Source of the DNA: Escherichia coli
GTDB lineage: Bacteria > Pseudomonadota > Gammaproteobacteria > Enterobacterales > Enterobacteriaceae
Reading direction: 5' to 3' (one strand)
Length of the DNA stretch: 64,000 nucleotides
Assembly: GCF_044324785.1 (NCBI RefSeq)
Contig: NZ_CP172127.1
Shown here one piece after another: positions 1 to 23,808 of the stretch. Each line of letters begins with the position of its first letter. Position 1 is the first letter of the stretch. Below the pieces are notes generated by a model that had not been told where the DNA came from, did no database searches, and worked only from the letters and a program-made list of their open reading frames with translations. Position numbers and translations under genes: made by a program.

Positions 1-57
1 CAGTTTCGCGAAATGAAACTGATGCGTAACCCGGGGTGTGAGGTGTGTGGGCAGTAA
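1..57 (+). CDS. moeB: 3' end of MoeB (molybdopterin-synthase adenylyltransferase); partial, the gene begins upstream of the window
   Basis: Frame 1 reads ...QFREMKLMRNPGCEVCGQ* . The CxxC tail and the position next to fsaA fit my recollection of MoeB and K-12 synteny. Confidence 0.75.
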   Translation, partial: QFREMKLMRNPGCEVCGQ

Positions 58-143
58 TTGCCACCTCAGGCCAGATAAGACGTAGCAGGCATCGGTGCAC
101 TCCGCCACGTCATCAGCAATTTATGAAGATGCAGAACGTCCGG

Positions 144-806
144 TTAAATCGACGTTCTGCCAAACGCTCCCAGCCAGTCCTGTTCAAACTTCGCCACAGC
201 GGCATCAACCGCCGGATAGCTAATCATCTGTTGTGCCACATCCAGCGGCAGAGTAATTGATTCACACCCTGCCAGTAAGCAGTCCAGCGCCTGACGCGGG
301 GTTTTGAAACTCGCGGCTAACACTTTCGCCTGCGGCGCATGCATTTTCAATAACTGGTGTAAGTCGGTCACAGTCTGAATACCGCTACCGCCCTGAGCAT
401 CAATACGATTAACGTAAGGCGCAACATATTCCGCACCTGCCAGCGCCGACAGCAGCCCTTGTGCTGCGCCATATACCGCGGTTCCCAGCGTCGGAATCCC
501 TTCCGCTTTTAACATCTTAATAGCTGCCAGCCCCTCGGCGGTCACCGGAACTTTCACCACGATATCCGCAATAATAGAACGCAATTTACGTGCGTCATTC
601 ACCATCCCTTCAGCAGTGGTAGCCATTACCTGGGCAAACAGACGCCCCTGACCGCCCATCGCTTCATGAAGTTCCGGAAGCACAACCTCCAGCGGTTTTT
701 TACCCGCGGCGATAATGCTTGGGTTAGTGGTCACACCCGCCAGCGGAAAAATACGTGACAGCGCCTTCACCGCAACAACGTCTGAAGTATCCAGATACAG
801 TTCCAT
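144..806 (-). CDS. fsaA: Fructose-6-phosphate aldolase 1 (220 aa)
   Basis: ORF 144..878 contains [32 protein letters not shown]..., recognised as FsaA. The start was trimmed to the MELYLDT codon at 806. Confidence 0.93.
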
Positions 807-869
807 AACCATCCTCAAAATGTACTTTTTGTCTGAATGTAGACTATCACGGGAAAACTCTCTGAACAG

Positions 870-883
870 TTGACGCACATCAA
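870..883. promoter_or_regulatory. FNR-like box TTGAC-GCAC-ATCAA in the fsaA/ybiY divergent region
   Basis: 9/10 match to the TTGAT-N4-ATCAA consensus, 54 nt upstream of the ybiY ATG. The downstream genes encode an anaerobic glycyl-radical system. Confidence 0.35.
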
Positions 884-887
884 TCTA

Positions 888-903
888 ACTTTCATTCGAA
901 AGT
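888..903. promoter_or_regulatory. Palindromic box ACTTTCATTCGAAAGT (copy 1 of 3 of the CTTTCATTCGAAA motif)
   Basis: Perfect 6-bp arms with a 4-nt spacer. The same 13-mer recurs at 4337..4349 and, inverted, at 5358..5370. Confidence 0.4.
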
Positions 904-936
904 ATTTTAATGTTTGAACGAAACAGAGAGGCAACT

Positions 937-1836
937 ATGATTTTCAATATTCAGCGCTACTCGACCCATGATGGCCCCGGTATCCGCACGGTCGTATTTC
1001 TTAAAGGCTGTTCGCTGGGCTGCCGCTGGTGTCAGAACCCGGAAAGCCGCGCCCGCACGCAGGATCTGCTGTATGACGCACGTCTGTGTCTGGAAGGCTG
1101 CGAGCTGTGCGCTAAGGCCGCGCCGGAAGTGATTGAGCGCGCGCTGAATGGCTTGCTTATTCATCGGGAAAAGTTAACCCCGGAGCATCTGACAGCGTTA
1201 ACCGACTGCTGCCCGACACAGGCGTTAACCGTATGTGGTGAAGTGAAAAGCGTTGAGGAGATAATGAAGACCGTTCTGCGCGATAAACCGTTTTACGATC
1301 GCAGCGGCGGCGGCTTAACGCTTTCTGGCGGTGAACCCTTTATGCAGCCGGAAATGGCGATGGCGCTACTGCAAGCCAGCCACGAGGCCGGCATTCATAC
1401 TGCGGTAGAAACCTGTCTGCATGTGCCGTGGAAATATATCACCCCTTCTCTGCCCTATATCGATCTGTTTCTTGCCGATTTAAAACACGTTGCCGACGCA
1501 CCGTTTAAACAGTGGACCGACGGTAATGCCGCCAGGGTGCTGGATAACCTGAAAAAACTCGCCGCAGCGGGCAAAAAAATCATTATCCGCGTGCCGCTGA
1601 TTCAGGGCTTTAATGCCGACGAAACCTCTGTAAAAGCCATTACCGATTTTGCCGCCGACGAGCTGCACGTTGGCGAAATTCATTTCCTGCCCTACCACAC
1701 GCTGGGCATCAACAAATATCACTTACTTAATCTGCCCTATGACGCCCCGGAAAAACCGCTTGATGCGCCAGAACTGCTCGACTTTGCCCAGCAGTATGCC
1801 TGCCAGAAAGGGTTAACCGCGACCTTACGAGGATAA
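937..1836 (+). CDS. ybiY: Glycyl-radical enzyme activating enzyme (radical SAM, PflA-like)
   Basis: [37 protein letters not shown]... carries the CxxxCxxC radical-SAM motif. It lies directly upstream of the GRE gene. Start trimmed from 910. Confidence 0.9.
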
Positions 1837-1841
1837 CAACC

Positions 1842-4274
1842 ATGACCACACTGAAACTGGATACGCTCAGCGACCGCATTAAAGCGCACAAAAATGCGCT
1901 GGTGCATATTGTGAAACCGCCGGTCTGTACCGAGCGCGCGCAGCACTATACTGAGATGTATCAACAACATCTCGATAAGCCGATCCCGGTACGTCGCGCG
2001 CTGGCGCTGGCGCATCACCTGGCGAATCGCACCATCTGGATCAAGCACGATGAGTTGATCATTGGCAACCAGGCAAGCGAAGTTCGCGCCGCGCCGATCT
2101 TCCCGGAATATACCGTCTCCTGGATCGAAAAAGAGATTGATGATCTGGCGGATCGTCCGGGTGCTGGTTTTGCGGTGAGCGAAGAGAACAAACGTGTTCT
2201 GCATGAAGTGTGCCCTTGGTGGCGCGGTCAGACGGTACAGGATCGCTGCTACGGCATGTTTACCGATGAGCAAAAAGGTCTGCTGGCGACCGGAATCATT
2301 AAAGCGGAAGGCAATATGACCTCCGGCGATGCGCACCTGGCGGTGAATTTCCCGCTACTGCTGGAAAAAGGTCTTGATGGTCTGCGCGAGAAAGTAGCGG
2401 AACGTCGCTCGCGCATCAACCTGACGGTGCTGGAAGATTTGCACGGCGAGCAGTTCCTGAAAGCGATTGATATCGTGCTGGTGGCAGTCAGTGAACACAT
2501 TGAACGTTTCGCTGCCCTGGCGCGTGAAATGGCAGCCACTGAAACCCGCGAAAGCCGTCGCGATGAACTGCTGGCGATAGCAGAAAACTGCGATCTTATC
2601 GCCCACCAGCCGCCGCAGACTTTCTGGCAGGCGCTGCAACTGTGCTACTTCATCCAGTTGATTTTGCAGATCGAATCTAACGGTCACTCGGTATCGTTTG
2701 GTCGTATGGACCAGTATCTCTACCCGTACTATCGCCGCGACGTTGAACTGAACCAGACACTGGATCGTGAACACGCCATCGAGATGCTGCATAGCTGCTG
2801 GTTAAAATTGCTGGAAGTGAACAAAATCCGCTCCGGCTCGCACTCGAAAGCCTCTGCGGGAAGTCCGCTGTATCAGAACGTCACCATTGGCGGACAAAAT
2901 CTGGTTGATGGTCAACCAATGGACGCGGTGAATCCACTCTCTTACGCGATCCTCGAATCCTGCGGTCGCCTGCGTTCTACTCAGCCTAACCTCAGCGTGC
3001 GTTACCATGCAGGAATGAGCAACGATTTCCTCGACGCCTGCGTACAGGTGATCCGCTGCGGCTTCGGGATGCCGGCGTTCAACAACGACGAAATCGTCAT
3101 CCCGGAATTTATTAAACTCGGTATTGAACCGCAGGACGCTTACGACTATGCAGCGATTGGTTGTATCGAAACCGCCGTCGGTGGCAAATGGGGCTATCGC
3201 TGTACCGGCATGAGCTTTATCAACTTCGCCCGCGTGATGCTGGCGGCGCTGGAAGGCGGGCGTGATGCCACCAGCGGCAAAGTGTTCCTGCCACAAGAAA
3301 AAGCGTTGTCAGCGGGTAACTTCAACAACTTCGATGAAGTAATGGACGCATGGGATACGCAAATCCGTTACTACACGCGTAAATCAATCGAAATCGAATA
3401 TGTCGTCGACACCATGCTGGAAGAGAACGTACACGATATTCTCTGCTCGGCGCTGGTGGATGACTGTATTGAGCGAGCGAAAAGTATCAAGCAAGGCGGC
3501 GCTAAATATGACTGGGTTTCTGGCCTGCAGGTCGGCATTGCTAACCTCGGCAACAGCCTGGCGGCAGTGAAGAAACTGGTATTTGAACAGGGCGCGATTG
3601 GTCAGCAACAGCTGGCTGCCGCACTGGCGGATGACTTCGACGGCCTGACTCACGAGCAGCTGCGTCAGCGGCTGATTAACGGTGCGCCTAAGTACGGCAA
3701 CGACGATGATACTGTCGATACGCTGCTGGCTCGCGCTTATCAGACCTATATCGACGAACTAAAACAGTACCATAACCCGCGCTATGGTCGTGGTCCGGTT
3801 GGCGGCAATTATTACGCGGGTACGTCATCTATCTCCGCTAACGTACCCTTTGGCGCGCAGACGATGGCAACGCCGGACGGGCGTAAAGCCCACACCCCGC
3901 TGGCAGAAGGCGCTAGTCCGGCCTCCGGTACTGATCATCTTGGCCCTACTGCGGTCATTGGCTCAGTGGGTAAACTGCCTACGGCCGCGATTCTCGGCGG
4001 CGTGTTGCTCAACCAGAAACTGAATCCGGCAACGCTGGAGAACGAATCTGACAAGCAGAAACTGATGATCCTGCTACGCACCTTCTTTGAAGTGCATAAA
4101 GGCTGGCATATTCAGTACAACATCGTTTCCCGCGAAACGCTGCTGGAAGCGAAAAAACATCCGGATCAGTACCGCGATCTGGTAGTGCGTGTCGCGGGTT
4201 ATTCCGCCTTCTTCACTGCGCTCTCTCCAGACGCACAGGACGATATCATCGCCCGTACTGAACATATGCTGTAA
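1842..4274 (+). CDS. ybiW: Glycyl radical enzyme (PFL-like, 810 aa)
   Basis: C-terminal glycyl-radical fingerprint RVAGYSAFF (Gly codon at 4197..4199) and active-site GCIE (3159..3170). Recognised as YbiW/PflF. Confidence 0.93.
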
Positions 4275-4336
4275 CTCTTCCGCCCGGCGGCCACCGTCGC
4301 CGGGCCAAATCATTCACATCATCAATTTCATCCTCG

Positions 4337-4349
4337 CTTTCATTCGAAA
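4337..4349. promoter_or_regulatory. CTTTCATTCGAAA box, copy 2, upstream of ybiV
   Basis: Exact 13-mer shared with 889..901 and with the reverse complement of 5358..5370. Confidence 0.35.
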
Positions 4350-4419
4350 TATAATTTGTGCTCTGCGTCACATTGTTATTACACTGTTACGGTTTCATTT
4401 TCGAGCCAGGAGCACACCT

Positions 4420-5235
4420 ATGAGCGTAAAAGTTATCGTCACAGACATGGACGGTACTTTTCTTAACGACGCCAAAACGTACAACCAACCACGTTTTATG
4501 GCGCAATATCAGGAACTGAAAAAGCGCGGCATTAAGTTCGTTGTCGCCAGCGGTAATCAGTATTACCAGCTTATTTCGTTCTTTCCTGAGCTAAAGGATG
4601 AGATCTCTTTTGTCGCGGAAAACGGCGCACTGGTTTACGAACATGGCAAGCAACTGTTCCACGGCGAACTGACCCGACATGAATCGCGGATTGTTATTGG
4701 CGAGTTGCTAAAAGATAAGCAACTCAATTTTGTCGCCTGCGGTCTGCAAAGTGCATATGTCAGCGAAAACGCCCCCGAAGCATTCGTCGCACTGATGGCA
4801 AAACACTACCATCGCCTGAAACCTGTAAAAGATTATCAGGAGATTGACGACGTACTGTTCAAGTTTTCGCTCAACCTGCCGGATGAACAAATCCCGTTAG
4901 TGATCGACAAACTGCACGTAGCGCTCGACGGCATTATGAAGCCGGTTACCAGTGGTTTTGGCTTTATCGACCTGATTATTCCTGGCCTGCATAAAGCGAA
5001 TGGTATTTCGCGGTTACTGAAACGCTGGGATCTGTCACCGCAAAATGTGGTAGCGATTGGCGACAGCGGTAACGATGCGGAGATGCTGAAAATGGCGCGT
5101 TATTCCTTTGCGATGGGCAATGCTGCGGAAAACATTAAACAAATCGCCCGTTACGCTACCGATGATAATAATCATGAAGGCGCGCTGAATGTGATTCAGG
5201 CGGTGCTGGATAACACATCCCCTTTTAACAGCTGA
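4420..5235 (+). CDS. ybiV: HAD-family sugar phosphatase (Cof-type, 271 aa)
   Basis: [17 protein letters not shown]... contains the HAD DxDGT motif. Recognised as YbiV/SupH. Start trimmed from 4189, with AGGAG 8 nt upstream. Confidence 0.9.
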
Positions 5236-5357
5236 CCTCTCTACCGGAGCTATGCGCTCCGGTTTTCCCTTCTTTTTACATCCTTTACATCACATCAAAT
5301 CATTAAACTTCCATTAACTTATTTATAACTTATATTGTCACATGCAAATCAGCATAG

Positions 5358-5370
5358 TTTCGAATGAAAG
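5358..5370. promoter_or_regulatory. CTTTCATTCGAAA box, copy 3 (inverted), immediately upstream of the ybiU RBS
   Basis: TTTCGAATGAAAG is the reverse complement of the 13-mer. It ends 16 nt before the ybiU ATG. Confidence 0.35.
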
Positions 5371-5386
5371 TTAATGCGAGGTGGTT

Positions 5387-6652
5387 ATGGCTTCTACTTT
5401 TACCAGCGACACATTGCCTGCCGATCACAAAGCAGCTATCCGTCAGATGAAGCACGCGCTGCGGGCGCAGCTTGGCGACGTCCAGCAGATCTTTAATCAG
5501 CTAAGCGATGACATTGCCACGCGAGTGGCTGAAATCAACGCACTCAAAGCACAGGGCGATGCCGTCTGGCCGGTGCTGTCTTATGCCGATATCAAAGCAG
5601 GTCATGTTACTGCAGAGCAGCGCGAACAAATTAAACGTCGCGGTTGTGCGGTGATAAAAGGCCATTTCCCCCGCGAACAAGCGCTAGGCTGGGATCAGTC
5701 GATGCTGGACTATCTGGACCGCAACCGCTTTGACGAGGTCTACAAAGGCCCCGGCGATAATTTCTTCGGGACACTCAGCGCTTCACGTCCCGAGATTTAC
5801 CCCATCTACTGGTCGCAGGCGCAAATGCAGGCCCGCCAGAGTGAAGAAATGGCGAATGTGCAGTCGTTTCTCAATCGTCTGTGGACATTTGAAAGTGATG
5901 GAAAGCAATGGTTTAACCCGGATGTGAGCGTCATCTACCCTGACCGTATCCGCCGCCGTCCGCCCGGAACGACCTCCAAAGGTCTTGGAGCGCATACCGA
6001 CTCCGGGGCGCTGGAACGCTGGCTGCTTCCAGCGTATCAGCACGTTTTCGCCAACGTCTTTAATGGCAATCTGGCGAAATACGATCCCTGGCATGCGGCA
6101 CATCGTACGGAAGTTGAAGAGTACACGGTGGACAACACCACCAAATGTTCCGTGTTTCGGACATTCCAGGGCTGGACAGCGCTCTCTGATATGCTGCCTG
6201 GTCAGGGGTTGCTGCACGTCGTGCCCATTCCTGAAGCCATGGCGTACGTACTGTTACGTCCGCTGCTTGATGATGTGCCGGAGGATGAACTGTGCGGCGT
6301 AGCGCCCGGAAGAGTGTTGCCGGTATCAGAGCAATGGCATCCACTGTTAATTGAGGCGTTAACCAGCATTCCAAAACTCGAGGCCGGAGACTCCGTCTGG
6401 TGGCACTGCGACGTCATCCATTCCGTTGCCCCCGTTGAAAATCAACAGGGTTGGGGCAACGTGATGTACATTCCTGCGGCACCGATGTGCGAGAAAAATC
6501 TTGCCTACGCGCACAAGGTGAAGGCCGCACTGGAAAAAGGCGCATCGCCGGGCGACTTCCCGCGCGAGGACTATGAAACAAACTGGGAAGGACGCTTTAC
6601 GCTTGCCGACCTCAACATTCACGGTAAGCGAGCGTTGGGAATCGACAGCTGA
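5387..6652 (+). CDS. ybiU: DUF1479-family protein (421 aa)
   Basis: MASTFTSDTLPADHKAAIRQMKHALRAQLGD... recognised as YbiU. Start trimmed by 2 codons. Confidence 0.85.
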   Translation: MASTFTSDTLPADHKAAIRQMKHALRAQLGDVQQIFNQLSDDIATRVAEINALKAQGDAVWPVLSYADIKAGHVTAEQREQIKRRGCAVIKGHFPREQALGWDQSMLDYLDRNRFDEVYKGPGDNFFGTLSASRPEIYPIYWSQAQMQARQSEEMANVQSFLNRLWTFESDGKQWFNPDVSVIYPDRIRRRPPGTTSKGLGAHTDSGALERWLLPAYQHVFANVFNGNLAKYDPWHAAHRTEVEEYTVDNTTKCSVFRTFQGWTALSDMLPGQGLLHVVPIPEAMAYVLLRPLLDDVPEDELCGVAPGRVLPVSEQWHPLLIEALTSIPKLEAGDSVWWHCDVIHSVAPVENQQGWGNVMYIPAAPMCEKNLAYAHKVKAALEKGASPGDFPREDYETNWEGRFTLADLNIHGKRALGIDS

Positions 6653-7722
6653 GTGTCGTACAGCCCTTCCCGTTCCACGGCGGTGTTCCCTTTTCCTGGG
6701 CGAACCCGCCGCACTGACTCCCGCACCGCCAATCGTCCGTGCAGCAGCAGCGAGCCCACCGGAGCATCCGGGCGAATCAGCCGCTGTTGCAACATTTGCA
6801 CCGCTTCATTGCCTAGCTCATCGCGTGGCACATGCACAGCCGTCAGGGGAACATCCTCGATTGCCGCAAGGTTAAAGCCGTCGATACTCATCACCGAGAC
6901 ATCCTGTGGTACGCGCAGACCACGACGATGTAGCGCATTTACCGTTCCCGCCGCCATAAAATCCCCGCCGACCAGAAACGCCGTCGGCAACGTCTTGCCA
7001 TTGGCGGCATCCAGCCACGCTCCGACCTTTTCTTCCGCTTCTTTAGCGCTAAAACTGCTGATATTCAGCAAATGACGGTCATGGTGAAAGGCCAGATTAT
7101 GCTGACGCCATGATTCTTTAATCCCTGCAAACCGCTGCTCCATAGTGTAGCGGCGCAGGCACATCACATTCATCACCTCCCGGTGACCCATTTCAAACAG
7201 ATAGCGGGCGGCGAACGCGCCAATTAACCGATGGTCCGGCGCAATCGCCGGGAGGCGCATTCGTTCATCACGGCAGTTGATCAGCACACAAGGCTTAGCG
7301 AGATCGGCGGCCAGATCATGGATGTGCGGATCGTCAATCCCCAGCAGGATCGCCGCCTGCGTATCTGCTTCATTCATCCGCGAGAGAAATAGCGCGGGAT
7401 CGCTGTCAAACTCCTCCAGCGCGCAGTAACGCAGCCGCACTTCATGCGGCGATAACGCTTTGCTGATGCTCTGGATCACACGGTAATAAAAGATATCAGA
7501 TCGTTGGTCAAAAGCGCGTTGCGGCGCGAAAATAATCAGGTTGTTCAGCAACATACGACCTGCTGCCATGCCATCCATCACGCCCAACTCACGCGCGCAG
7601 GCCAGCACCTGTTCGCGAGCGCGTGCACTGGTATTCGCTTTGCCAGCCAGCACCCGCGAAACCGTACTCGGCGATAGCCCGGTACGTGCGGCGATATCGG
7701 CGATTTTCAGCTTCTTGTCCAT
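6619..7722 (-). CDS. LacI/GalR-family transcriptional regulator (367 aa); not in the K-12 backbone as I recall it
   Basis: N-terminal HTH MDKKLKIADIAARTGLSPSTVSRVLAGK followed by a periplasmic-binding-protein-like core. Start trimmed to 7722. The 3' tail overlaps the ybiU 3' end by 34 nt. Confidence 0.85.
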   Translation of the reverse strand: MDKKLKIADIAARTGLSPSTVSRVLAGKANTSARAREQVLACARELGVMDGMAAGRMLLNNLIIFAPQRAFDQRSDIFYYRVIQSISKALSPHEVRLRYCALEEFDSDPALFLSRMNEADTQAAILLGIDDPHIHDLAADLAKPCVLINCRDERMRLPAIAPDHRLIGAFAARYLFEMGHREVMNVMCLRRYTMEQRFAGIKESWRQHNLAFHHDRHLLNISSFSAKEAEEKVGAWLDAANGKTLPTAFLVGGDFMAAGTVNALHRRGLRVPQDVSVMSIDGFNLAAIEDVPLTAVHVPRDELGNEAVQMLQQRLIRPDAPVGSLLLHGRLAVRESVRRVRPGKGNTAVEREGLYDTQLSIPNARLP

Positions 7723-8016
7723 TTTGTGATCTGCCTCTAATTCGGAAATGACAGAATTTTCATGAGCAAAAAAGCCCATTCTGTCTGGCATTAAATCCAT
7801 TTCAGTAATGTATATCAGTCACTCATGGAAAAACGTGCACAAAACCCGCTTTCTTTCGCTTTTAGGGTCTCTTACTGTGAATTGGTAGAACAACTTCCAT
7901 ACAAAAATAATGGAAAAACGAACAACAAAGACTTTATTTATCAAAAAGTTAAAAGTGGTGTGACAACTCCATTCTGACGTTGCCGCACAAACCCTATACC
8001 ATTCTGTGGAGTGCAT

Positions 8017-9318
8017 ATGAGTCAGGGTATCAATAACGATATGACTGCCAGTAAACCGCGCCATATCGTCAAAAATCTGCGTTGGTGGATACTGGTCCTT
8101 TTTTTGCTCGGTGTTACTGTCAACTACATCACGCGTAACTCGCTGGGTATTCTCGCCCCCGAACTGAAAAGCAGCCTGGGGATTACCACCGAACAATATT
8201 CCTGGATTGTAGGTGCTTTCCAGCTCGCCTATACCCTATTCCAACCGTTGTGCGGATGGCTGATTGACGTCATTGGCCTCAAACTGGGCTTTATGATCTG
8301 CGCGGGACTGTGGGCACTGGCCTGTCTGATGCATGCGGGGGCGGGAAACTGGGTACATCTGGCGCTGTTGCGCTTCTTTATGGGCGGTGCGGAAGCCGCA
8401 GCAACCCCAGCAAACGCCAAAACCATCGGTGAATGGTTTCCAAAATCAGAACGCCCGATCGCCGCAGGCTGGGCAGGCGTCGGTTTTTCCATCGGTGCCA
8501 TGCTGGCCCCACCGATTATCTATTTTGCCCACGCTTCATTCGGCTGGCAGGGTGCATTTATGTTCACTGGCATCCTGGCGATGCTGTGGGTCGTGCTGTG
8601 GTGGGCGTTCTATCACAGCCCGGATAAGCATCCTAACCTCAGCAAAGCCGAGCTGGACTTTATTCGCCAGGATAACGAAGCGCCCCCGGTCAAGTTACCC
8701 TTTCTGACCGCACTGAAAACCGTGGGCAAAAATAAACGCTTTTACGGTATCGCTATCCCGGCCTTTATGGCAGAACCGGCGTGGGCGGTGATGAGTTTCT
8801 GGGTTCCGCTATACCTGTCCAAAACCTATGGCATGGACCTGAAGCAGATCGCATTATTCGCCTGGTTGCCGTTCCTCGCCGCTGATCTTGGCAGTATTGC
8901 CAGCGGCTATCTGACCAAACTTTACACCCGCCTGTTTGGGCTGAGTCGTGTGAACTCCGTTGTCGCATCATCGGTCAGTGGCGCATTCCTGATGGTTTCG
9001 CTGGCGGTGATGGCCTTTACCAATAACCCGTATATCGCCATCGTCCTTATCTCCATCGGCGGCTTCGGTCACCAGATCATCTCCTGCATGCTAAGCGCAC
9101 TGGTGGTGGAATCCTTCGACAAAGGTCAGATGGCCACTGTTAACGGCATGCGCGGTTCTGCCGCGTGGATCGCAAGTTTCCTGTTCTCCCTGATAATCGG
9201 GGTTACCGCAGACAAAATCGGCTTTAACCCCCTGTTTATCGCCATGGGCTTCTTTGACCTGATTGGCGCTTTCTTCCTGGTCACCTTTATTGCTGAACGT
9301 CGCGCAAAACGCGCCTGA
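8017..9318 (+). CDS. MFS transporter, anion:cation symporter family, ExuT (hexuronate transporter)-like
   Basis: LRWWILVLFLLGVTVNYITRNSLGILAPELKSSLGITTEQYSWIVGAFQLAYTLFQPLCGWLID... parallels ExuT as I remember it. GGAG lies 6-7 nt before the ATG at 8017. Confidence 0.85.
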   Translation: MSQGINNDMTASKPRHIVKNLRWWILVLFLLGVTVNYITRNSLGILAPELKSSLGITTEQYSWIVGAFQLAYTLFQPLCGWLIDVIGLKLGFMICAGLWALACLMHAGAGNWVHLALLRFFMGGAEAAATPANAKTIGEWFPKSERPIAAGWAGVGFSIGAMLAPPIIYFAHASFGWQGAFMFTGILAMLWVVLWWAFYHSPDKHPNLSKAELDFIRQDNEAPPVKLPFLTALKTVGKNKRFYGIAIPAFMAEPAWAVMSFWVPLYLSKTYGMDLKQIALFAWLPFLAADLGSIASGYLTKLYTRLFGLSRVNSVVASSVSGAFLMVSLAVMAFTNNPYIAIVLISIGGFGHQIISCMLSALVVESFDKGQMATVNGMRGSAAWIASFLFSLIIGVTADKIGFNPLFIAMGFFDLIGAFFLVTFIAERRAKRA

Positions 9319-9332
9319 GAGTGGATGTAAAC

Positions 9333-11696
9333 ATGAAAACGCTGAAAAACTGGACCCTGCACAAACAGTCTGCCCACCACGTTGAACTGCTGGTCGATGG
9401 CCAGCATATCCTGTGCCTGTACGTGCTGGAAGAAAATCTGTTCCGCGTGCTGTTAAAACGCAAAGGCGAGCTGGCGCTGGATCGCACCTGGAGCATTGCT
9501 CCGGCGCAGGATGTGCCATGGGAAGGGCGCAGCCGCGAAGATCTCAGCGGCTTTAGCCTGCCCGCGTGGACATTGATCCAGCACGACGACACCGTGGTTA
9601 TCGCCACCGAGTCACTGCGTGTCACCGTTCACCAGCCGCTGTGGCTGGAGTGGCACTATCGTAACAACGAAGGCGAATGGCTGCCGTTGGTGAATGACCG
9701 CCCGACCAGCGCTTATCTGCTGAATGCCCACGGCGATGGCGTGGCACACTATCAGAGCCGTCGTAAAGATGAACGCTTTTATGGCCTCGGAGATAAAGCC
9801 GGCGACCTGCAACGCAACGGTAAACGTTACGAGATGCGTAACCTCGACGCGATGGGCTACAACGCCGTTAGTACTGACCCGCTGTACAAACACATTCCAT
9901 TCACCATCACCCGCCGCGATGACATTAGCTTCGGCCTGTTTTATGACAACCTCAGCAGCTGCTGGCTGGATCTGGGCAACGAGATCGACAACTACCACAC
10001 CGCCTATCGCCGCTGGCAGGCGGAAGCGGGTGATATCGACTACTACCTGTTTACCGGCGAACGCGTACTTGATATCACCAAAGCCTTCGTACGCCTGACC
10101 GGAAAAACCCTGTTCGGACCGAAATGGAGCCTGGGCTACAGCGGTTCAACTATGCACTACACCGATGCGCCGGACGCACAAAATCAGTTGATGAACTTTA
10201 TCCGCCTGTGTGAAGAACATGCAATTCCCTGCGATTCGTTCCAGCTCTCTTCCGGTTATACCTCAATTAACGGCAAACGCTATGTGTTCAACTGGAACTA
10301 CGACAAAGTGCCGCAGCCGAAAGTGATGAGCCAGGCATTTCACAATGCTGGTTTGCACCTGGCCGCCAATATCAAGCCGTGCCTGTTGCAGGATCACCCA
10401 CGCTATAACGAAGTGGCAGAAAGAGGACTGTTCATCCGTGATTCAGAAACAGATGAACCAGAACGTTCCAGCTTCTGGGATGACGAAGGTTCTAACCTCG
10501 ACTTTACTAATCCGCAGACCATCCAGTGGTGGCAGGAAGGCGTGACCACACAGCTTCTGGAGATGGGTATCGACTCCACCTGGAACGACAACAACGAATT
10601 CGAAGTATGGGACGGTGAAGCACGCTGTCACGGCTTTGGTCAGACGATCGCGATCAAACATATTCGCCCAGTGATGCCACTGCTGATGATGCGAGCCTCG
10701 ATGGAAGCCCAGCAGCGTTTCGCTCCGGAAAAACGTCCGTACTTGATCTCCCGCTCCGGCTGCGCGGGAATGCAGCGCTACGTGCAGACCTGGAGTGGCG
10801 ATAACCGCACTAGCTGGGACACTCTGCGCTACAACACCCGCATGGGTCTGGGGATGAGCCTCTCCGGGTTGTATAACCTCGGTCACGACGTCGGCGGTTT
10901 CTCCGGTGATAAACCGGACCCGGAACTGTTTGTACGCTGGGTACAAAACGGCGTGATGCATCCGCGCTTTACGATTCACTCATGGAACGATGACCATACC
11001 GTAAACGAACCGTGGATGTATCCGGGCGTCACTCCGGCGATCCGCAGCGCTATTGAGTTGCGCTATCGCCTGCTGCCCTACTTTTATACCCTGATGTGGC
11101 AGGCATACGCCGATGATGAACCAATGCTACGTCCGACTTTCCTTGACCACGAGCACGACGTTCAGACTTTTGAAGAGTGTGATGACTTCCTGCTTGGTCG
11201 CGATATTTTGGTTGCCAGCGTCGTAGAGCAAGGCGAGCGCCAGCGCCGTGTATGGCTGCCAGATAACGAAACTGGCTGGTACGATTTCTACAACGGCGAA
11301 TGGTTCAGTGGCGGTCAGTGGATCACCCTCGACGCACCGCTGGAGAAACTGCCGCTGATGGTGCGTGCCGGGGCTGGTCTACCGCTCAGCAAACGCATCA
11401 CCTATGTGAGCGCAGAACAAGACGATACCCGCGAACTGAAACTGTTCCCGCTGAAAGGTGTGGGCACAACGTCCGGCCTGCTGTTTGAAGACGATGGCGA
11501 AAGCTGGGGCTACCAAACTGGTAATGCGCTTTGGGTGGAATGGGAAATGGTTTGCGATGGGGCGACCATCAACCTGAAAGTCAACGCGCGCGGGGATTAT
11601 CGTCCTGCATGGAGTGCACTGAAAGTGTCATTACCATTGGAAGAAAAACGCACGCTGCTGGTCAATGGTGTTGAAGGGAGTGAATGGATGCGTTAA
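9333..11696 (+). CDS. Glycoside hydrolase family 31 alpha-glycosidase (about 787 aa), specificity unknown
   Basis: GH31 signatures GIDSTWNDNNEF (nucleophile Asp region) and QTWSGDNRTSW. An alternative GTG start exists at 9321. The stop of the upstream MFS gene is 15 nt away, so it is probably an operon. Confidence 0.85.
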   Translation: MKTLKNWTLHKQSAHHVELLVDGQHILCLYVLEENLFRVLLKRKGELALDRTWSIAPAQDVPWEGRSREDLSGFSLPAWTLIQHDDTVVIATESLRVTVHQPLWLEWHYRNNEGEWLPLVNDRPTSAYLLNAHGDGVAHYQSRRKDERFYGLGDKAGDLQRNGKRYEMRNLDAMGYNAVSTDPLYKHIPFTITRRDDISFGLFYDNLSSCWLDLGNEIDNYHTAYRRWQAEAGDIDYYLFTGERVLDITKAFVRLTGKTLFGPKWSLGYSGSTMHYTDAPDAQNQLMNFIRLCEEHAIPCDSFQLSSGYTSINGKRYVFNWNYDKVPQPKVMSQAFHNAGLHLAANIKPCLLQDHPRYNEVAERGLFIRDSETDEPERSSFWDDEGSNLDFTNPQTIQWWQEGVTTQLLEMGIDSTWNDNNEFEVWDGEARCHGFGQTIAIKHIRPVMPLLMMRASMEAQQRFAPEKRPYLISRSGCAGMQRYVQTWSGDNRTSWDTLRYNTRMGLGMSLSGLYNLGHDVGGFSGDKPDPELFVRWVQNGVMHPRFTIHSWNDDHTVNEPWMYPGVTPAIRSAIELRYRLLPYFYTLMWQAYADDEPMLRPTFLDHEHDVQTFEECDDFLLGRDILVASVVEQGERQRRVWLPDNETGWYDFYNGEWFSGGQWITLDAPLEKLPLMVRAGAGLPLSKRITYVSAEQDDTRELKLFPLKGVGTTSGLLFEDDGESWGYQTGNALWVEWEMVCDGATINLKVNARGDYRPAWSALKVSLPLEEKRTLLVNGVEGSEWMR

Positions 11697-16835: not shown

Positions 16836-18419
16836 ATGAATTTAACCCTCAAAGAATCGCTTGTTACCCGTAGCCGGGTATTTAGCCCGTGGACTGCGTT
16901 CTACTTTTTACAGTCGCTATTAATTAACCTCGGCTTAGGTTATCCCTTCAGTTTGCTCTACACCGCTGCGTTTACGGCTATTTTGCTTTTGCTATGGCGA
17001 ACATTGCCTCGCGTACAAAAAGTTCTGGTCGGTGTCAGTTCGCTGGTGGCGGCTTGTTATTTCCCTTTTGCTCAGGCCTACGGCGCGCCTAATTTCAATA
17101 CATTGCTGGCATTGCACTCCACCAATATGGAAGAGTCGACCGAAATCCTGACGATTTTTCCGTGGTACAGCTACCTGGTCGGCTTATTTATTTTTGCGCT
17201 CGGCGTAATAGCAATCAGGCGAAAAAAAGAGAATGAAAAAGCGCGCTGGAATACCTTCGACAGCCTGTGTCTGGTATTCAGTGTGGCGACATTTTTTGTT
17301 GCTCCCGTGCAAAACCTGGCCTGGGGCGGCGTATTTAAACTGAAAGATACTGGCTATCCGGTATTTCGTTTTGCTAAGGATGTCATCGTCAATAATAACG
17401 AGGTGATTGAAGAGCAAGAACGGATGGCAAAACTGTCCGGAATGAAAGATACCTGGACGGTCACTGCCGTTAAGCCGAAATATCAGACTTATGTGGTGGT
17501 GATCGGTGAAAGCGCGCGTCGCGATGCCCTCGGTGCCTTTGGCGGTCACTGGGACAATACCCCGTTTGCCAGCAGCGTTAACGGTTTGATATTTGCTGAC
17601 TACATTGCCGCCAGTGGCTCCACGCAGAAATCGCTTGGCTTAACGCTCAATCGCGTAGTCGATGGCAAACCACAGTTTCAGGATAACTTTGTCACCCTGG
17701 CAAATCGCGCGGGCTTCCAGACCTGGTGGTTTTCCAACCAGGGCCAAATCGGCGAATACGATACCGCCATCGCCAGCATCGCCAAACGTGCAGATGAAGT
17801 GTACTTCCTGAAAGAAGGTAATTTTGAAGCAGATAAAAACACGAAAGACGAAGCGTTACTGGATATGACCGCTCAAGTGCTGGCACAAGAGCACTCGCAA
17901 CCGCGGCTGATTGTTCTACATCTGATGGGCTCACATCCGCAGGCCTGCGACCGGACACAAGGCAAATACGAAACCTTTGTGCAATCGAAAGAAACGTCGT
18001 GCTATCTCTATACCATGACGCAAACGGACGATTTACTGCGCAAGCTGTACGATCAGTTACGCAACAGCGGCAGCAGCTTCTCGCTGGTTTACTTTTCTGA
18101 CCACGGTCTGGCTTTTAAAGAGCGCGGCAAAGACGTGCAATACCTTGCCCATGATGATAAGTATCAGCAAAATTTCCAGGTGCCTTTTATGGTCATTTCG
18201 AGCGACGATAAAGCGCATCGGGTGATTAAAGCCCGCCGCTCAGCCAATGACTTCTTAGGTTTTTTCTCCCAGTGGACGGGAATTAAAGCGAAGGAAATTA
18301 ACATCAAATACCCGTTTATATCTGAGAAGAAAGCCGGGCCGATATACATCACCAACTTCCAGTTACAGAAGGTAGATTACAACCATCTCGGAACCGATAT
18401 TTTCGACCCGAAACCTTAA
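16836..18419 (+). CDS. opgE: Phosphoethanolamine transferase (OPG modification)
   Basis: 527 aa with N-terminal TM helices and a sulfatase-like domain. Recognised as YbiP/OpgE. Confidence 0.88.
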   Translation: MNLTLKESLVTRSRVFSPWTAFYFLQSLLINLGLGYPFSLLYTAAFTAILLLLWRTLPRVQKVLVGVSSLVAACYFPFAQAYGAPNFNTLLALHSTNMEESTEILTIFPWYSYLVGLFIFALGVIAIRRKKENEKARWNTFDSLCLVFSVATFFVAPVQNLAWGGVFKLKDTGYPVFRFAKDVIVNNNEVIEEQERMAKLSGMKDTWTVTAVKPKYQTYVVVIGESARRDALGAFGGHWDNTPFASSVNGLIFADYIAASGSTQKSLGLTLNRVVDGKPQFQDNFVTLANRAGFQTWWFSNQGQIGEYDTAIASIAKRADEVYFLKEGNFEADKNTKDEALLDMTAQVLAQEHSQPRLIVLHLMGSHPQACDRTQGKYETFVQSKETSCYLYTMTQTDDLLRKLYDQLRNSGSSFSLVYFSDHGLAFKERGKDVQYLAHDDKYQQNFQVPFMVISSDDKAHRVIKARRSANDFLGFFSQWTGIKAKEINIKYPFISEKKAGPIYITNFQLQKVDYNHLGTDIFDPKP

Positions 18420-23692: not shown

Positions 23693-23808
23693 CTTCTCAG
23701 CCTCCCTTTCCCCCGAAAGGGAGGCACACCAGATTCCTCTCATTTAAAATCGCCCCTCCCCCAGCATCTATACTTATCTTTTTGCTCTGTTTTCTCACTG
23801 GAGGAGTC

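Follow-up and report, generated by a model that had tools for sequence, protein, structure and literature searches.

Repressors of the DeoR family are typically induced by a phosphorylated intermediate of the pathway that they control. The member of most concern here is YciT (b1284), which in Escherichia coli has been found by a combination of ChIP-exo and RNA-seq of a ΔyciT strain to bind and repress fsaA, ybiY, ybiW, ybiV and ybiU (PMC8464067); these five genes make up the top induced set in the deletion strain, with log2 changes of +7.7 for ybiY, +7.0 for ybiU, +3.5 for ybiW, +2.2 for ybiV and +1.8 for fsaA, and ybiU is the YciT target that is derepressed most abundantly. The same study reported ChIP-exo peaks for the cluster under the names 'ybiY' (S/N 45) and 'ybiV' (S/N 24), and described the MEME motif of YciT as palindromic (PMC8464067, Gao et al. 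2021, NAR). More recently, DNA chromatography with mass spectrometry, carried out within Reg-Seq using a ybiY-promoter bait (the sequence of which is not given), found YciT to be strongly enriched, placed its site roughly 100 bp from the ChIP-exo call, and showed the ybiY promoter to be active only anaerobically (bioRxiv 10.1101/2025.05.13.653802). These accounts associate YciT with osmotic stress or with the switch between aerobic and anaerobic conditions (PMC8464067; bioRxiv 10.1101/2025.05.13.653802). RegulonDB reportedly lists it as an activator (bioRxiv 10.1101/2025.05.13.653802), and in RefSeq annotation it appears as a dual regulator.

As to the function of the target genes, 1,5-anhydroglucitol-6-phosphate is converted anaerobically to glyceraldehyde-3-phosphate and hydroxyacetone by a route that uses YbiW, a glycyl-radical enzyme, and FsaA, an aldolase (PMC13450708, PMC12441222). 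A link between YciT and 1,5-anhydroglucitol catabolism is absent from the published YciT accounts in the accessible literature.

Three boxes in one gene cluster

The window, meaning the whole 64 kb stretch of E. coli DNA that was analysed, contains the gene order moeB-fsaA-ybiY-ybiW-ybiV-ybiU, as confirmed by the way RefSeq annotates near-identical genomes of E. coli. One annotated gene occupies 144–806 on the minus strand (RefSeq-type annotation, with its role taken from PMC13450708), while on the plus strand there follow ybiY-ybiW at 937–4274 (glycyl-radical activase and 1,5-anhydroglucitol-6-phosphate C-O lyase; PMC13450708, PMC12441222), the sugar phosphatase gene ybiV at 4420–5235 (from annotation, with a terminator-like hairpin after the gene at 5243–5263) and ybiU at 5387–6652 (DUF1479/Gig2-like, from annotation and domain match). 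Adjacent to ybiU and convergent with it, a gene for a LacI-family regulator lies on the minus strand at 6619–7779.

The 13-mer CTTTCATTCGAAA occurs in exactly three copies, at 889–901 (+), 4337–4349 (+) and 5358–5370 (−), and a scan of the full 64 kb bore out the sequence-only reading both in these positions and in its statement that the element is found nowhere else in the window; allowing 1 or 2 mismatches yields no further copy in the 64 kb, and only at 3 mismatches do 16 extra matches appear, a number equal to chance (19 in total observed against 21 expected). In 100 dinucleotide shuffles of the window the expectation for the exact 13-mer was 0.00. The first copy does, as had been noticed by eye, form part of a perfect 6-N4-6 palindrome, ACTTTC-N4-GAAAGT, which constitutes box 1 (ACTTTCATTCGAAAGT, 888–903) in the divergent fsaA/ybiY promoter, and from which the 16-mers around the other two copies differ by 3 mismatches in box 2 (GCTTTCATTCGAAATA, 4336–4351, 5' of ybiV) and by 1 mismatch in box 3 (AGTTTCGAATGAAAGT, reverse complement ACTTTCATTCGAAACT, 5356–5371, before the ybiU start codon). 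All three are proposed YciT operators. From the end of each box it is 33 nt to the ybiY ATG (937), 70 nt to the ybiV ATG (4420) and 16 nt to the ybiU ATG (5387), the latter two distances being as originally given. All three 13-mers recur without change in K-12 MG1655, at NC_000913.3 863547–863559, 860099–860111 and 859078–859090, the equivalent of the box 1 16-mer being at 863545–863560.

To see how far the box is kept in other species, ybiW-bearing loci from 80 species (1.39 Mb) were used as the sample for phylogenetic footprinting, and these orthologous loci together with the published YciT ChIP-exo list supply the genome-wide view. Copies of the box with at most one mismatch number 193, against 1.66 expected, and 192 of them lie no more than 160 nt 5' of ybiY, ybiV or ybiU, with little variation in the distance, the remaining copy preceding a disrupted ybiU. 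Such a box is present 42–47 nt upstream of ybiY (centre to ATG) in 78 of 79 species loci, 71–78 nt upstream of ybiV in 54 of 67, and before ybiU in 61 of 63. In alignments the boxes stand out as islands of identity amid diverged intergenic DNA, and they are spread over some 25 genera, so that the footprinting suggested earlier shows the box to be retained in orthologous promoters. Across the 1.39 Mb it is restricted to the three promoters, rather than being comparably frequent in other DNA as it would be if the sequence-only reading had been misled by a common motif.

That the three copies might simply be chance, or functionless remnants of some small repeated or mobile element, is suggested by nothing other than the short length of the repeat, and is refuted by the conservation just described: three copies are found where none is expected, the position is kept in about 25 genera, and homology shared by the flanks of the three copies extends over at most 1–3 nt. 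We regard this reading as barely worth entertaining, and the original judgement that the three copies were very unlikely to have arisen by chance is upheld by the shuffles and by the cross-species conservation.

A second alternative is that the box acts not as a DNA operator but as an RNA hairpin in 5' leaders, governing translation or stability. RNA of box 1 could indeed pair over 6 bp around a loop of 4 nt (−4.9 kcal/mol, z = −3.4), but the fold of box 2 reaches only −0.4 kcal/mol, with its pairing broken (GCTTTC/GAAATA), and for the ybiU leader the stability does not exceed that of shuffled sequences (z = −0.2). In addition, transcription probably starts downstream of box 1, the arms are kept as sequence and show no compensatory changes, and the orientation of the box relative to the gene flips between genera, as is seen for ybiV. 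On the folding energies and the lack of covariation in the alignments the hairpin reading was rejected, and it is extremely improbable.

YciT as the probable protein that binds the boxes

The sequence-only reading had supposed a common dimeric regulator for the transcription units of the cluster, with no regulator gene of its own in K-12 and no assigned factor. The core of this, a single regulator that recognises the palindrome, holds, and it is also true that the K-12 cluster contains no regulator gene, yciT being some 480 kb away; the statement that no factor had been assigned is, however, out of date (PMC8464067; bioRxiv 10.1101/2025.05.13.653802).

The LacI-family protein encoded next to ybiU had been put forward as one that might bind the box, and its gene, besides being adjacent, accompanies the cluster in about 45 of the 80 species loci. 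Nevertheless, exact or near-exact boxes occur without the LacI gene in K-12, E. albertii, E. ruysiae, many Citrobacter, Klebsiella spallanzanii, Phytobacter and Yersinia, and in K-12, which lacks the gene, it is deletion of yciT that causes derepression (PMC8464067). The LacI/MFS intergenic region, which is the regulator's own divergent promoter, contains no box at 2 or fewer mismatches, and what is conserved there is different in sequence: AATGAAAGAATTTTCAT and, twice, ATGGAAAAACG. The neighbour is accordingly rejected as the binder because the boxes persist where its gene is missing and because the gene carries palindromes of its own; these two points effectively refute it, leaving a very slight probability indeed.

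A more searching question concerns the published ChIP-exo coordinates, which in this cluster fall to the side of the boxes. The call nearest box 1, from which Reg-Seq put its YciT site roughly 100 bp off, falls 111 bp away, in the first fsaA codons, and that nearest box 3 falls 164 bp away, at the ybiV 3' end, while the published table has no peak at box 2. Neither displaced peak has a box-like sequence under it, and the only motif common to the two, found by eye, is the 7-mer CTGGATA, which is compatible with chance. These displacements would fit a situation in which the boxes are occupied by some other factor (another DeoR paralogue, akin to AgaR or GlpR, or some protein not yet known), with YciT acting indirectly or at the displaced positions. 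It also favours such a reading that AgaR is the next-best family for YciT, and AgaR operators also contain CTTTC.

Against it stands first the motif under the other YciT peaks. When ChIP-exo peak coordinates were converted to K-12 sequence and eight peaks outside the cluster were examined, all eight proved to have a centred TTTC-N4/5-GAAA box, with no more than one arm mismatch at N4 spacing in seven of them; the cluster boxes represent the perfect version of this motif. The box-like sequences at the peak centres are TTTTCAAACGAAAGT for pdeR (ChIP-exo peak #17), ACTTTCCGAATGAAAGT for yfcV (S/N 69), TTTTCATTTGAAAGG for rdcA, TTTTCATTTGAAAT for yjiT, ATTCATTTGAAAGT for yjjI, CTTTCATCTGAAAC for sixA, CTTTCGGGTGAAAG for ybiO and TTTCGGGTCGAAA for ompX. 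Within the window, a weak box-like site on the minus strand at 18394–18415 (GGTTTCGGGTCGAAAATATCGG) is identical to the K-12 sequence under ChIP-exo peak #7 (ompX/opgE), and a terminator-hairpin-like palindrome at 23706–23719 (CTTTCCCCCGAAAG) lies at the place of the weak K-12 peak #6 (glnQ-ybiO). As regards autoregulation in E. coli, no box at 2 or fewer mismatches was found 5' of yciT/yciZ in a 10 kb stretch around the gene, the one 2-mismatch box in that stretch being the pdeR promoter site of peak #17.

A second line of evidence comes from the regulator itself. YciT has the domains HTH_DeoR (PF08220, 6.5e-16) and DeoRC (PF00455, 5.2e-47), which place it in the DeoR family, and scores 488 bits against NCBIfam trans_reg_YciT, above the cut-off of 450. 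In seven loci (Yersinia similis, Pantoea, Mixta, Brenneria, Atlantibacter and two MAGs) a YciT-like gene adjoins fsaA-ybiYW, lying behind ybiW or fsaA or else preceded by a box of its own, and the encoded proteins (58–65% identity) have YciT as their best NCBIfam match, at 343–387 bits as against at most 153 for any other family. Site and regulator appear to have evolved together in these linked loci, with a YciT-like gene inside a box-bearing cluster in seven loci from at least five genera. Such synteny in distant genera, the enrichment of YciT by the ybiY-promoter bait (bioRxiv 10.1101/2025.05.13.653802), and the fact that the perfect boxes go with the 130- to 200-fold derepression all weigh against a different occupant, which we consider improbable.

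Taking all this together, the three boxes are very probably high-affinity YciT operators, with consensus ACTTTC-AWWY-GAAAGT, through which YciT silences the cluster. The finding is sound but already known, in that the regulator and its target genes are published, and for that reason no new question is opened; the present analysis makes some small additions, namely the operators at base level, conserved FNR- and CRP-type boxes and a predicted inducer. Of these, the operator positions are supplied at base resolution where the ChIP-exo table is 110–165 bp off, and across Enterobacterales few non-coding elements of the locus are as well conserved as these operators.

Elements beside the boxes and a proposed mechanism

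Upstream of ybiY, an FNR-type box (TTGACGCACATCAA) lies at 870–883, its centre 19 bp from that of box 1; it is the single occurrence of TTGAY-N4-RTCAA in the window, and 26 of 27 aligned sequences keep the arms TTGA..TCAA unchanged, the exception being Pantoea with TTGT. Given the conserved TTTAAT at 906–911, this box would be located at about −41.5 relative to a start near 918. A literature search found no papers connecting FNR with ybiY regulation; FNR is a candidate for the unexplained anaerobic activator of Reg-Seq. Some 22 bp downstream of box 1, a position at 911–924 (O2) is degenerate here (TGTTTGAACGAAAC) and is box-like in the alignments of other genera (CTTCATACGAAAG, TTTTCATGCGAAA and TTTTCGTTCGAAA), with 2-mismatch box matches at +22 in Atlantibacter and Siccibacter, and may possibly be an auxiliary YciT operator. 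At ybiV, a candidate CRP-type box recognised by its sequence (TGTGCTCTGCGTCACA, 4357–4372) is found 21 bp from box 2, with arms invariant in all 19 aligned genera. Box 3, as read from the alignment, would be downstream of a conserved ybiU −35/−10 pair. A simple consensus promoter scan was uninformative for these activator-dependent promoters.

In the mechanism that we propose, YciT, presumably as a dimer or higher oligomer, would bind all three boxes, each of which would overlap or abut a promoter. At ybiY, box 1 would occupy the space that separates the FNR-type box from the −10 element, and a second, weaker site would cover the start point; at ybiV, box 2 would abut the CRP-type box; and at ybiU, box 3 would lie between the promoter and the ribosome-binding site. 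This geometry, and with it co-control by FNR and CRP, is inferred. With YciT on the boxes, fsaA, ybiYW, ybiV and ybiU would be off, until released by a sugar phosphate, this mode of release being proposed because it is usual for DeoR-family repressors. No ligand data for YciT were found in the literature, and 1,5-anhydroglucitol-6-phosphate or 1-deoxy-fructose-6-phosphate is predicted as the inducer purely by analogy with the family. A regulator annotated around osmotic stress would in this way become connected to 1,5-anhydroglucitol catabolism, with a specific inducer predicted.

A joint reading, in which YciT is the dedicated sugar-phosphate sensor of the 'anhydroglycolysis' pathway, itself a recent discovery, could as easily prove wrong as right. 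If it were true, 1,5-anhydroglucitol-6-phosphate or its product 1-deoxy-fructose-6-phosphate would free YciT from three perfect operators, and these, together with FNR (at ybiYW/fsaA) and CRP (at ybiV), would form a three-input switch sensing the presence of substrate, the absence of oxygen and the lack of any better sugar. On this view ybiU (130-fold derepressed, and yciT-linked in Mixta) and ybiV would supply members of the pathway that have so far been missing, and the unlinked yciT of E. coli would be derived from an in-cluster ancestor still to be seen in Yersinia, Pantoea and Brenneria.

Comparison with known systems

Promoters at which class II activation by FNR is combined with a local repressor offer one parallel, in that ybiY has a near-consensus FNR box some 41.5 bp before its proposed start, a pathway repressor site in the spacer and, in Reg-Seq, anaerobic-only activity; it differs in that its FNR box is a candidate by sequence and its start is inferred. 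With AgaR, GlpR, DeoR and SrlR, YciT shares the HTH_DeoR + DeoRC architecture and the use of repeated or palindromic operators over catabolic promoters, several to a regulon, although it scores far below their equivalog cut-offs, its TTTC-N4-GAAA operator is its own, and its gene in E. coli lies apart from the genes that it controls; among solved structures, the DeoR C-terminal domain 7L6L is the sole related one. The closest comparison is of course with the published YciT regulon itself (PMC8464067; 10.1101/2025.05.13.653802), from which the present picture differs in that the cluster peak coordinates are off the boxes and box 2 is without a peak, but with which it agrees as to the genes, the regulator and the direction of repression, and in that the motif under its other peaks is the box described here.

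A conserved palindromic box in three promoters

The 13-mer CTTTCATTCGAAA is present in exactly three copies, at 889-901 (+), 4337-4349 (+) and 5358-5370 (-), with no fourth in the 64 kb, and the first of these extends to the perfect palindrome ACTTTC-ATTC-GAAAGT at 888-903 (box 1); the 16-mer of box 2 (4336-4351) departs from it at 3 bases and that of box 3 (5356-5371) at 1. Shuffling the window gives 0.00 copies as against the 3 real ones, further copies with 1 or 2 mismatches are absent from the 64 kb, and matches with 3 mismatches are no commoner there than chance predicts (19 observed, 21 expected). The gene order, taken from the RefSeq annotation of near-identical E. coli genomes, is moeB, fsaA (-), then ybiY, ybiW, ybiV and ybiU (+), followed by genes for a LacI-family regulator, an MFS transporter and a GH31 glycosidase, and then ybiT; the box ends lie 33 nt from the start codon of ybiY, 70 nt from that of ybiV and 16 nt from that of ybiU. 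The same three exact 13-mers are found in K-12 MG1655, relative to which the window is free of indels over this stretch; there the 16-mers occupy NC_000913.2 862768-862783 (box 1), 859320-859335 (box 2) and 858300-858315 (box 3). What the sequence-only reading had described, namely three exact copies lying 5' of linked genes and one full palindrome, is confirmed in every detail.

As to the strain itself, window 1-8000 has a top identity of 98.6% among 5,426 complete E. coli genomes, while its YbiW is 100% identical to proteins from records labelled Enterobacter hormaechei and Escherichia ruysiae, implying either that the strain lies outside the common E. coli lineages or that those records are mislabelled.

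Conservation was assessed by comparing the YbiW loci of 80 species (1.39 Mb in total), drawn from Escherichia, Citrobacter, Salmonella, Enterobacter, Klebsiella, Raoultella, Kluyvera, Kosakonia, Yokenella and others, with Yersinia, Pantoea, Mixta and Brenneria as the most distant members. Copies of the 13-mer with at most 1 mismatch number 193, against 1.66 expected, and for 192 the distance upstream of ybiY (78 of 79 loci), ybiV (54 of 67) or ybiU (61 of 63) is no more than 160 nt; the remaining copy precedes a disrupted ybiU. Spacing from box to start codon is nearly fixed across loci, and in intergenic alignments the boxes stand out as blocks of identity amid diverged surroundings, taking the form CTTTCTTTCGAAA in the distant genera. 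In these loci, then, the boxes are confined to promoters and conserved in them, rather than being spread genome-wide or lost from orthologous promoters, the two outcomes that the sequence-only reading had named as counting against it. Since box 2 is found on either strand, its orientation varying between genera, it is the TTTC/GAAA arms that define the site, the A/T-rich ATTC core being kept yet free in orientation.

Two other explanations for these boxes were considered and rejected. The first was an RNA hairpin, but folding prediction gives weak structures (-0.4 to -4.9 kcal/mol), and it is as sequence that the arms are kept, with compensatory changes absent. The second, offered earlier as something to check, was that the boxes are bound by the LacI-family protein, whose gene does indeed adjoin ybiU in about 45 of the 80 loci. 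However, exact or near-exact boxes persist in many species where this gene is absent (K-12, E. albertii, E. ruysiae, many Citrobacter, some Klebsiella and all the distant genera), and its own promoter region carries different elements: a conserved AATGAAAGAATTTTCAT, present in the window as AATGACAGAATTTTCAT at 7747-7763, and a repeated ATGGAAAAACG at 7825-7835 and 7910-7920, both of which are probably the gene's own operators. The annotated start of this gene (6619-8016 region) appears to be about 19 codons too early, as the HTH begins only at residue 26, and the likely start is MDKKLKIADIA at 7722. GH31 enzymes include alpha-glucan lyases, which produce 1,5-anhydrofructose, so that a functional tie between the island as a whole (6619-11696, beside ybiU in about 45 of 80 species and missing from K-12) and the anhydroglucitol cluster is conceivable.

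YciT as the regulator

The sequence-only reading proposed a common palindrome-binding regulator and knew of no factor for it; the former is borne out, while for the latter the literature already supplies a name, the DeoR-family repressor YciT (b1284; Gao et al. 2021, PMC8464067). ChIP-exo with tagged YciT gave 49 sites, in which MEME found a palindromic motif, peaks in the ybi cluster (fsaA, ybiY, ybiW, ybiV and ybiU) were highlighted, and expression of fsaA, ybiY and ybiV was reported as altered in delta-yciT (PMC8464067). In Dataset S6 of the same study the five cluster genes head the list of those induced in delta-yciT (log2 values: ybiY +7.7, ybiU +7.0, ybiW +3.5, ybiV +2.2, fsaA +1.8), and a supplementary figure legend gives ybiV, ybiU, fsaA and ybiY as repressed by YciT (PMC8464067). 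Independently, a Reg-Seq preprint recovered YciT on a ybiYW promoter bait using DNA chromatography and mass spectrometry, and found that this promoter is active only anaerobically (10.1101/2025.05.13.653802). Regulator and regulon were thus previously known.

When the published NC_000913.2 peak coordinates were converted to NC_000913.3 and eight other K-12 YciT peaks inspected, a box-like sequence was found centred in all eight: ACTTTCCGAATGAAAGT at yfcV (the strongest peak), TTTTCAAACGAAAGT at pdeR, TTTTCATTTGAAAGG at rdcA, TTTTCATTTGAAAT at yjiT, ATTCATTTGAAAGT at yjjI, CTTTCATCTGAAAC at sixA, CTTTCGGGTGAAAG at ybiO and TTTCGGGTCGAAA at ompX, where by our own estimate chance would supply about 0.01 such matches per peak. 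Judged by sequence, the three boxes represent this motif in its perfect form, and the genes beside them are, by a wide margin, the most strongly derepressed in delta-yciT. Weak box-like sequences at 23706-23719 (glnQ-ybiO) and 18394-18415 (ompX-opgE) correspond to minor K-12 YciT peaks; the former owes its likeness to the box to a GC-rich hairpin resembling a terminator (in K-12, CCTCCCTTTC...GAAAGGGAGG), of which it forms part.

Within the cluster itself the published peaks are displaced. Peak #9 (v2 862873-862900, window 771-798) is 111 bp away from box 1, over the opening codons of fsaA, and peak #8 (v2 858455-858488, window 5183-5216) is 164 bp away from box 3, within the 3' end of ybiV; there is no box-like sequence beneath either, and box 2 has no peak in the published table. 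The offset used here places the neighbouring peaks #6 and #7 exactly, so the displacement does not arise from coordinate conversion, and the Reg-Seq authors, whose YciT site is about 100 bp away from where ChIP-exo had called it, also remark on the discrepancy (10.1101/2025.05.13.653802). It is possible that it reflects a peak-pairing artefact at very strong sites, or else a higher-order complex.

In E. coli, yciT adjoins osmB, some 480 kb from the ybi cluster. A YciT-like gene lies within the cluster in 7 of the 80 loci, namely those of Yersinia similis, Pantoea, Mixta, Brenneria, Atlantibacter and two MAGs, immediately 3' of ybiW or fsaA, or in Mixta 3' of the adjacent ybiU; ybiV and ybiU are missing from most of these clusters. 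The encoded proteins are 58-65% identical to YciT, which has HTH_DeoR and DeoRC domains, and score 343-387 bits with the NCBIfam YciT model as against at most 153 bits with any other family, although this falls short of the 450-bit cut-off of that narrow model. The Yersinia gene is itself preceded, at 160 nt, by a TTTCGATCGAAA box. Such genomic company lends independent support to YciT as the regulator that would act at these boxes.

Proposed promoter architecture

Upstream of ybiY there is a near-consensus FNR-type box, TTGACGCACATCAA, at 870-883, with arms kept in 26 of 27 aligned sequences (TTGT in Pantoea). No second match of this kind occurs in the window, and the distance to box 1 is 19 bp. 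Transcription of ybiY is predicted from a conserved TTTAAT (906-911) to start near 918, which would put the FNR-type box about 41.5 bp upstream of the start and box 1 at -30 to -15; a putative second, weaker box 22 bp beyond box 1, which reads CTTCATACGAAAG in most genera but is degenerate in E. coli, would lie over the start itself. Such a layout fits a glycyl-radical pathway that is of use only in the absence of oxygen, as well as the anaerobic-only activity seen by Reg-Seq, and the FNR-type box may account for the anaerobic activator footprint which that study left unexplained; no paper tying FNR to ybiY regulation was found in the literature. The same box might also serve fsaA, for which the minus strand offers an extended -10, TGaTAGTCT, at 849-841 and a predicted start at about 834.

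Abutting box 2 (21 bp apart) is a CRP-type palindrome, TGTGCTCTGCGTCACA (TGTGC-N6-TCACA), at 4357-4372, with arms invariant in 19 of 19 genera. An activator site would not usually be placed as this one is with respect to the likely ybiV -10 (TACACT at 4380-4385, TAGAAT in most genera).

For ybiU, a highly conserved promoter pair (-35 TTCCAT at 5309-5314, -10 TATATT at 5331-5336) lies upstream of box 3. With transcription predicted to begin at about 5343, box 3 would occupy about +13 to +28 and could act as a roadblock just past the start. The very high ybiU read counts of delta-yciT in aerobic growth (Gao et al., PMC8464067) are consistent with a strong promoter that works unaided. The region 5300-5340 is almost invariant between genera and includes three AACTT repeats (5306, 5316 and 5327), phased at 10-11 bp and resembling the left flank of box 1 (AACTTTC), which may be auxiliary half-sites or the site of another factor.

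A candidate inducer, and relation to what was known

For DeoR-family repressors the normal signal is a phosphorylated pathway intermediate, which makes 1,5-anhydroglucitol-6-phosphate or 1-deoxy-fructose-6-phosphate the obvious candidate inducer of YciT, by analogy. YbiW is now known to be a C-O lyase converting the former to the latter, from which FsaA-type aldolases produce glyceraldehyde-3-P together with hydroxyacetone by cleavage (Ma et al. 2024, relayed in PMC13450708 and PMC12441222); a search of the open literature found no paper connecting YciT with anhydroglucitol.

Given that YciT and its regulon were already known, the novelty here is low. What is added to that known system is an operator map at base level, a strong phylogenetic footprint, the finding that in distant genera yciT is syntenic with the cluster, two candidate inputs (FNR and CRP), and a prediction as to the inducer that can be tested.
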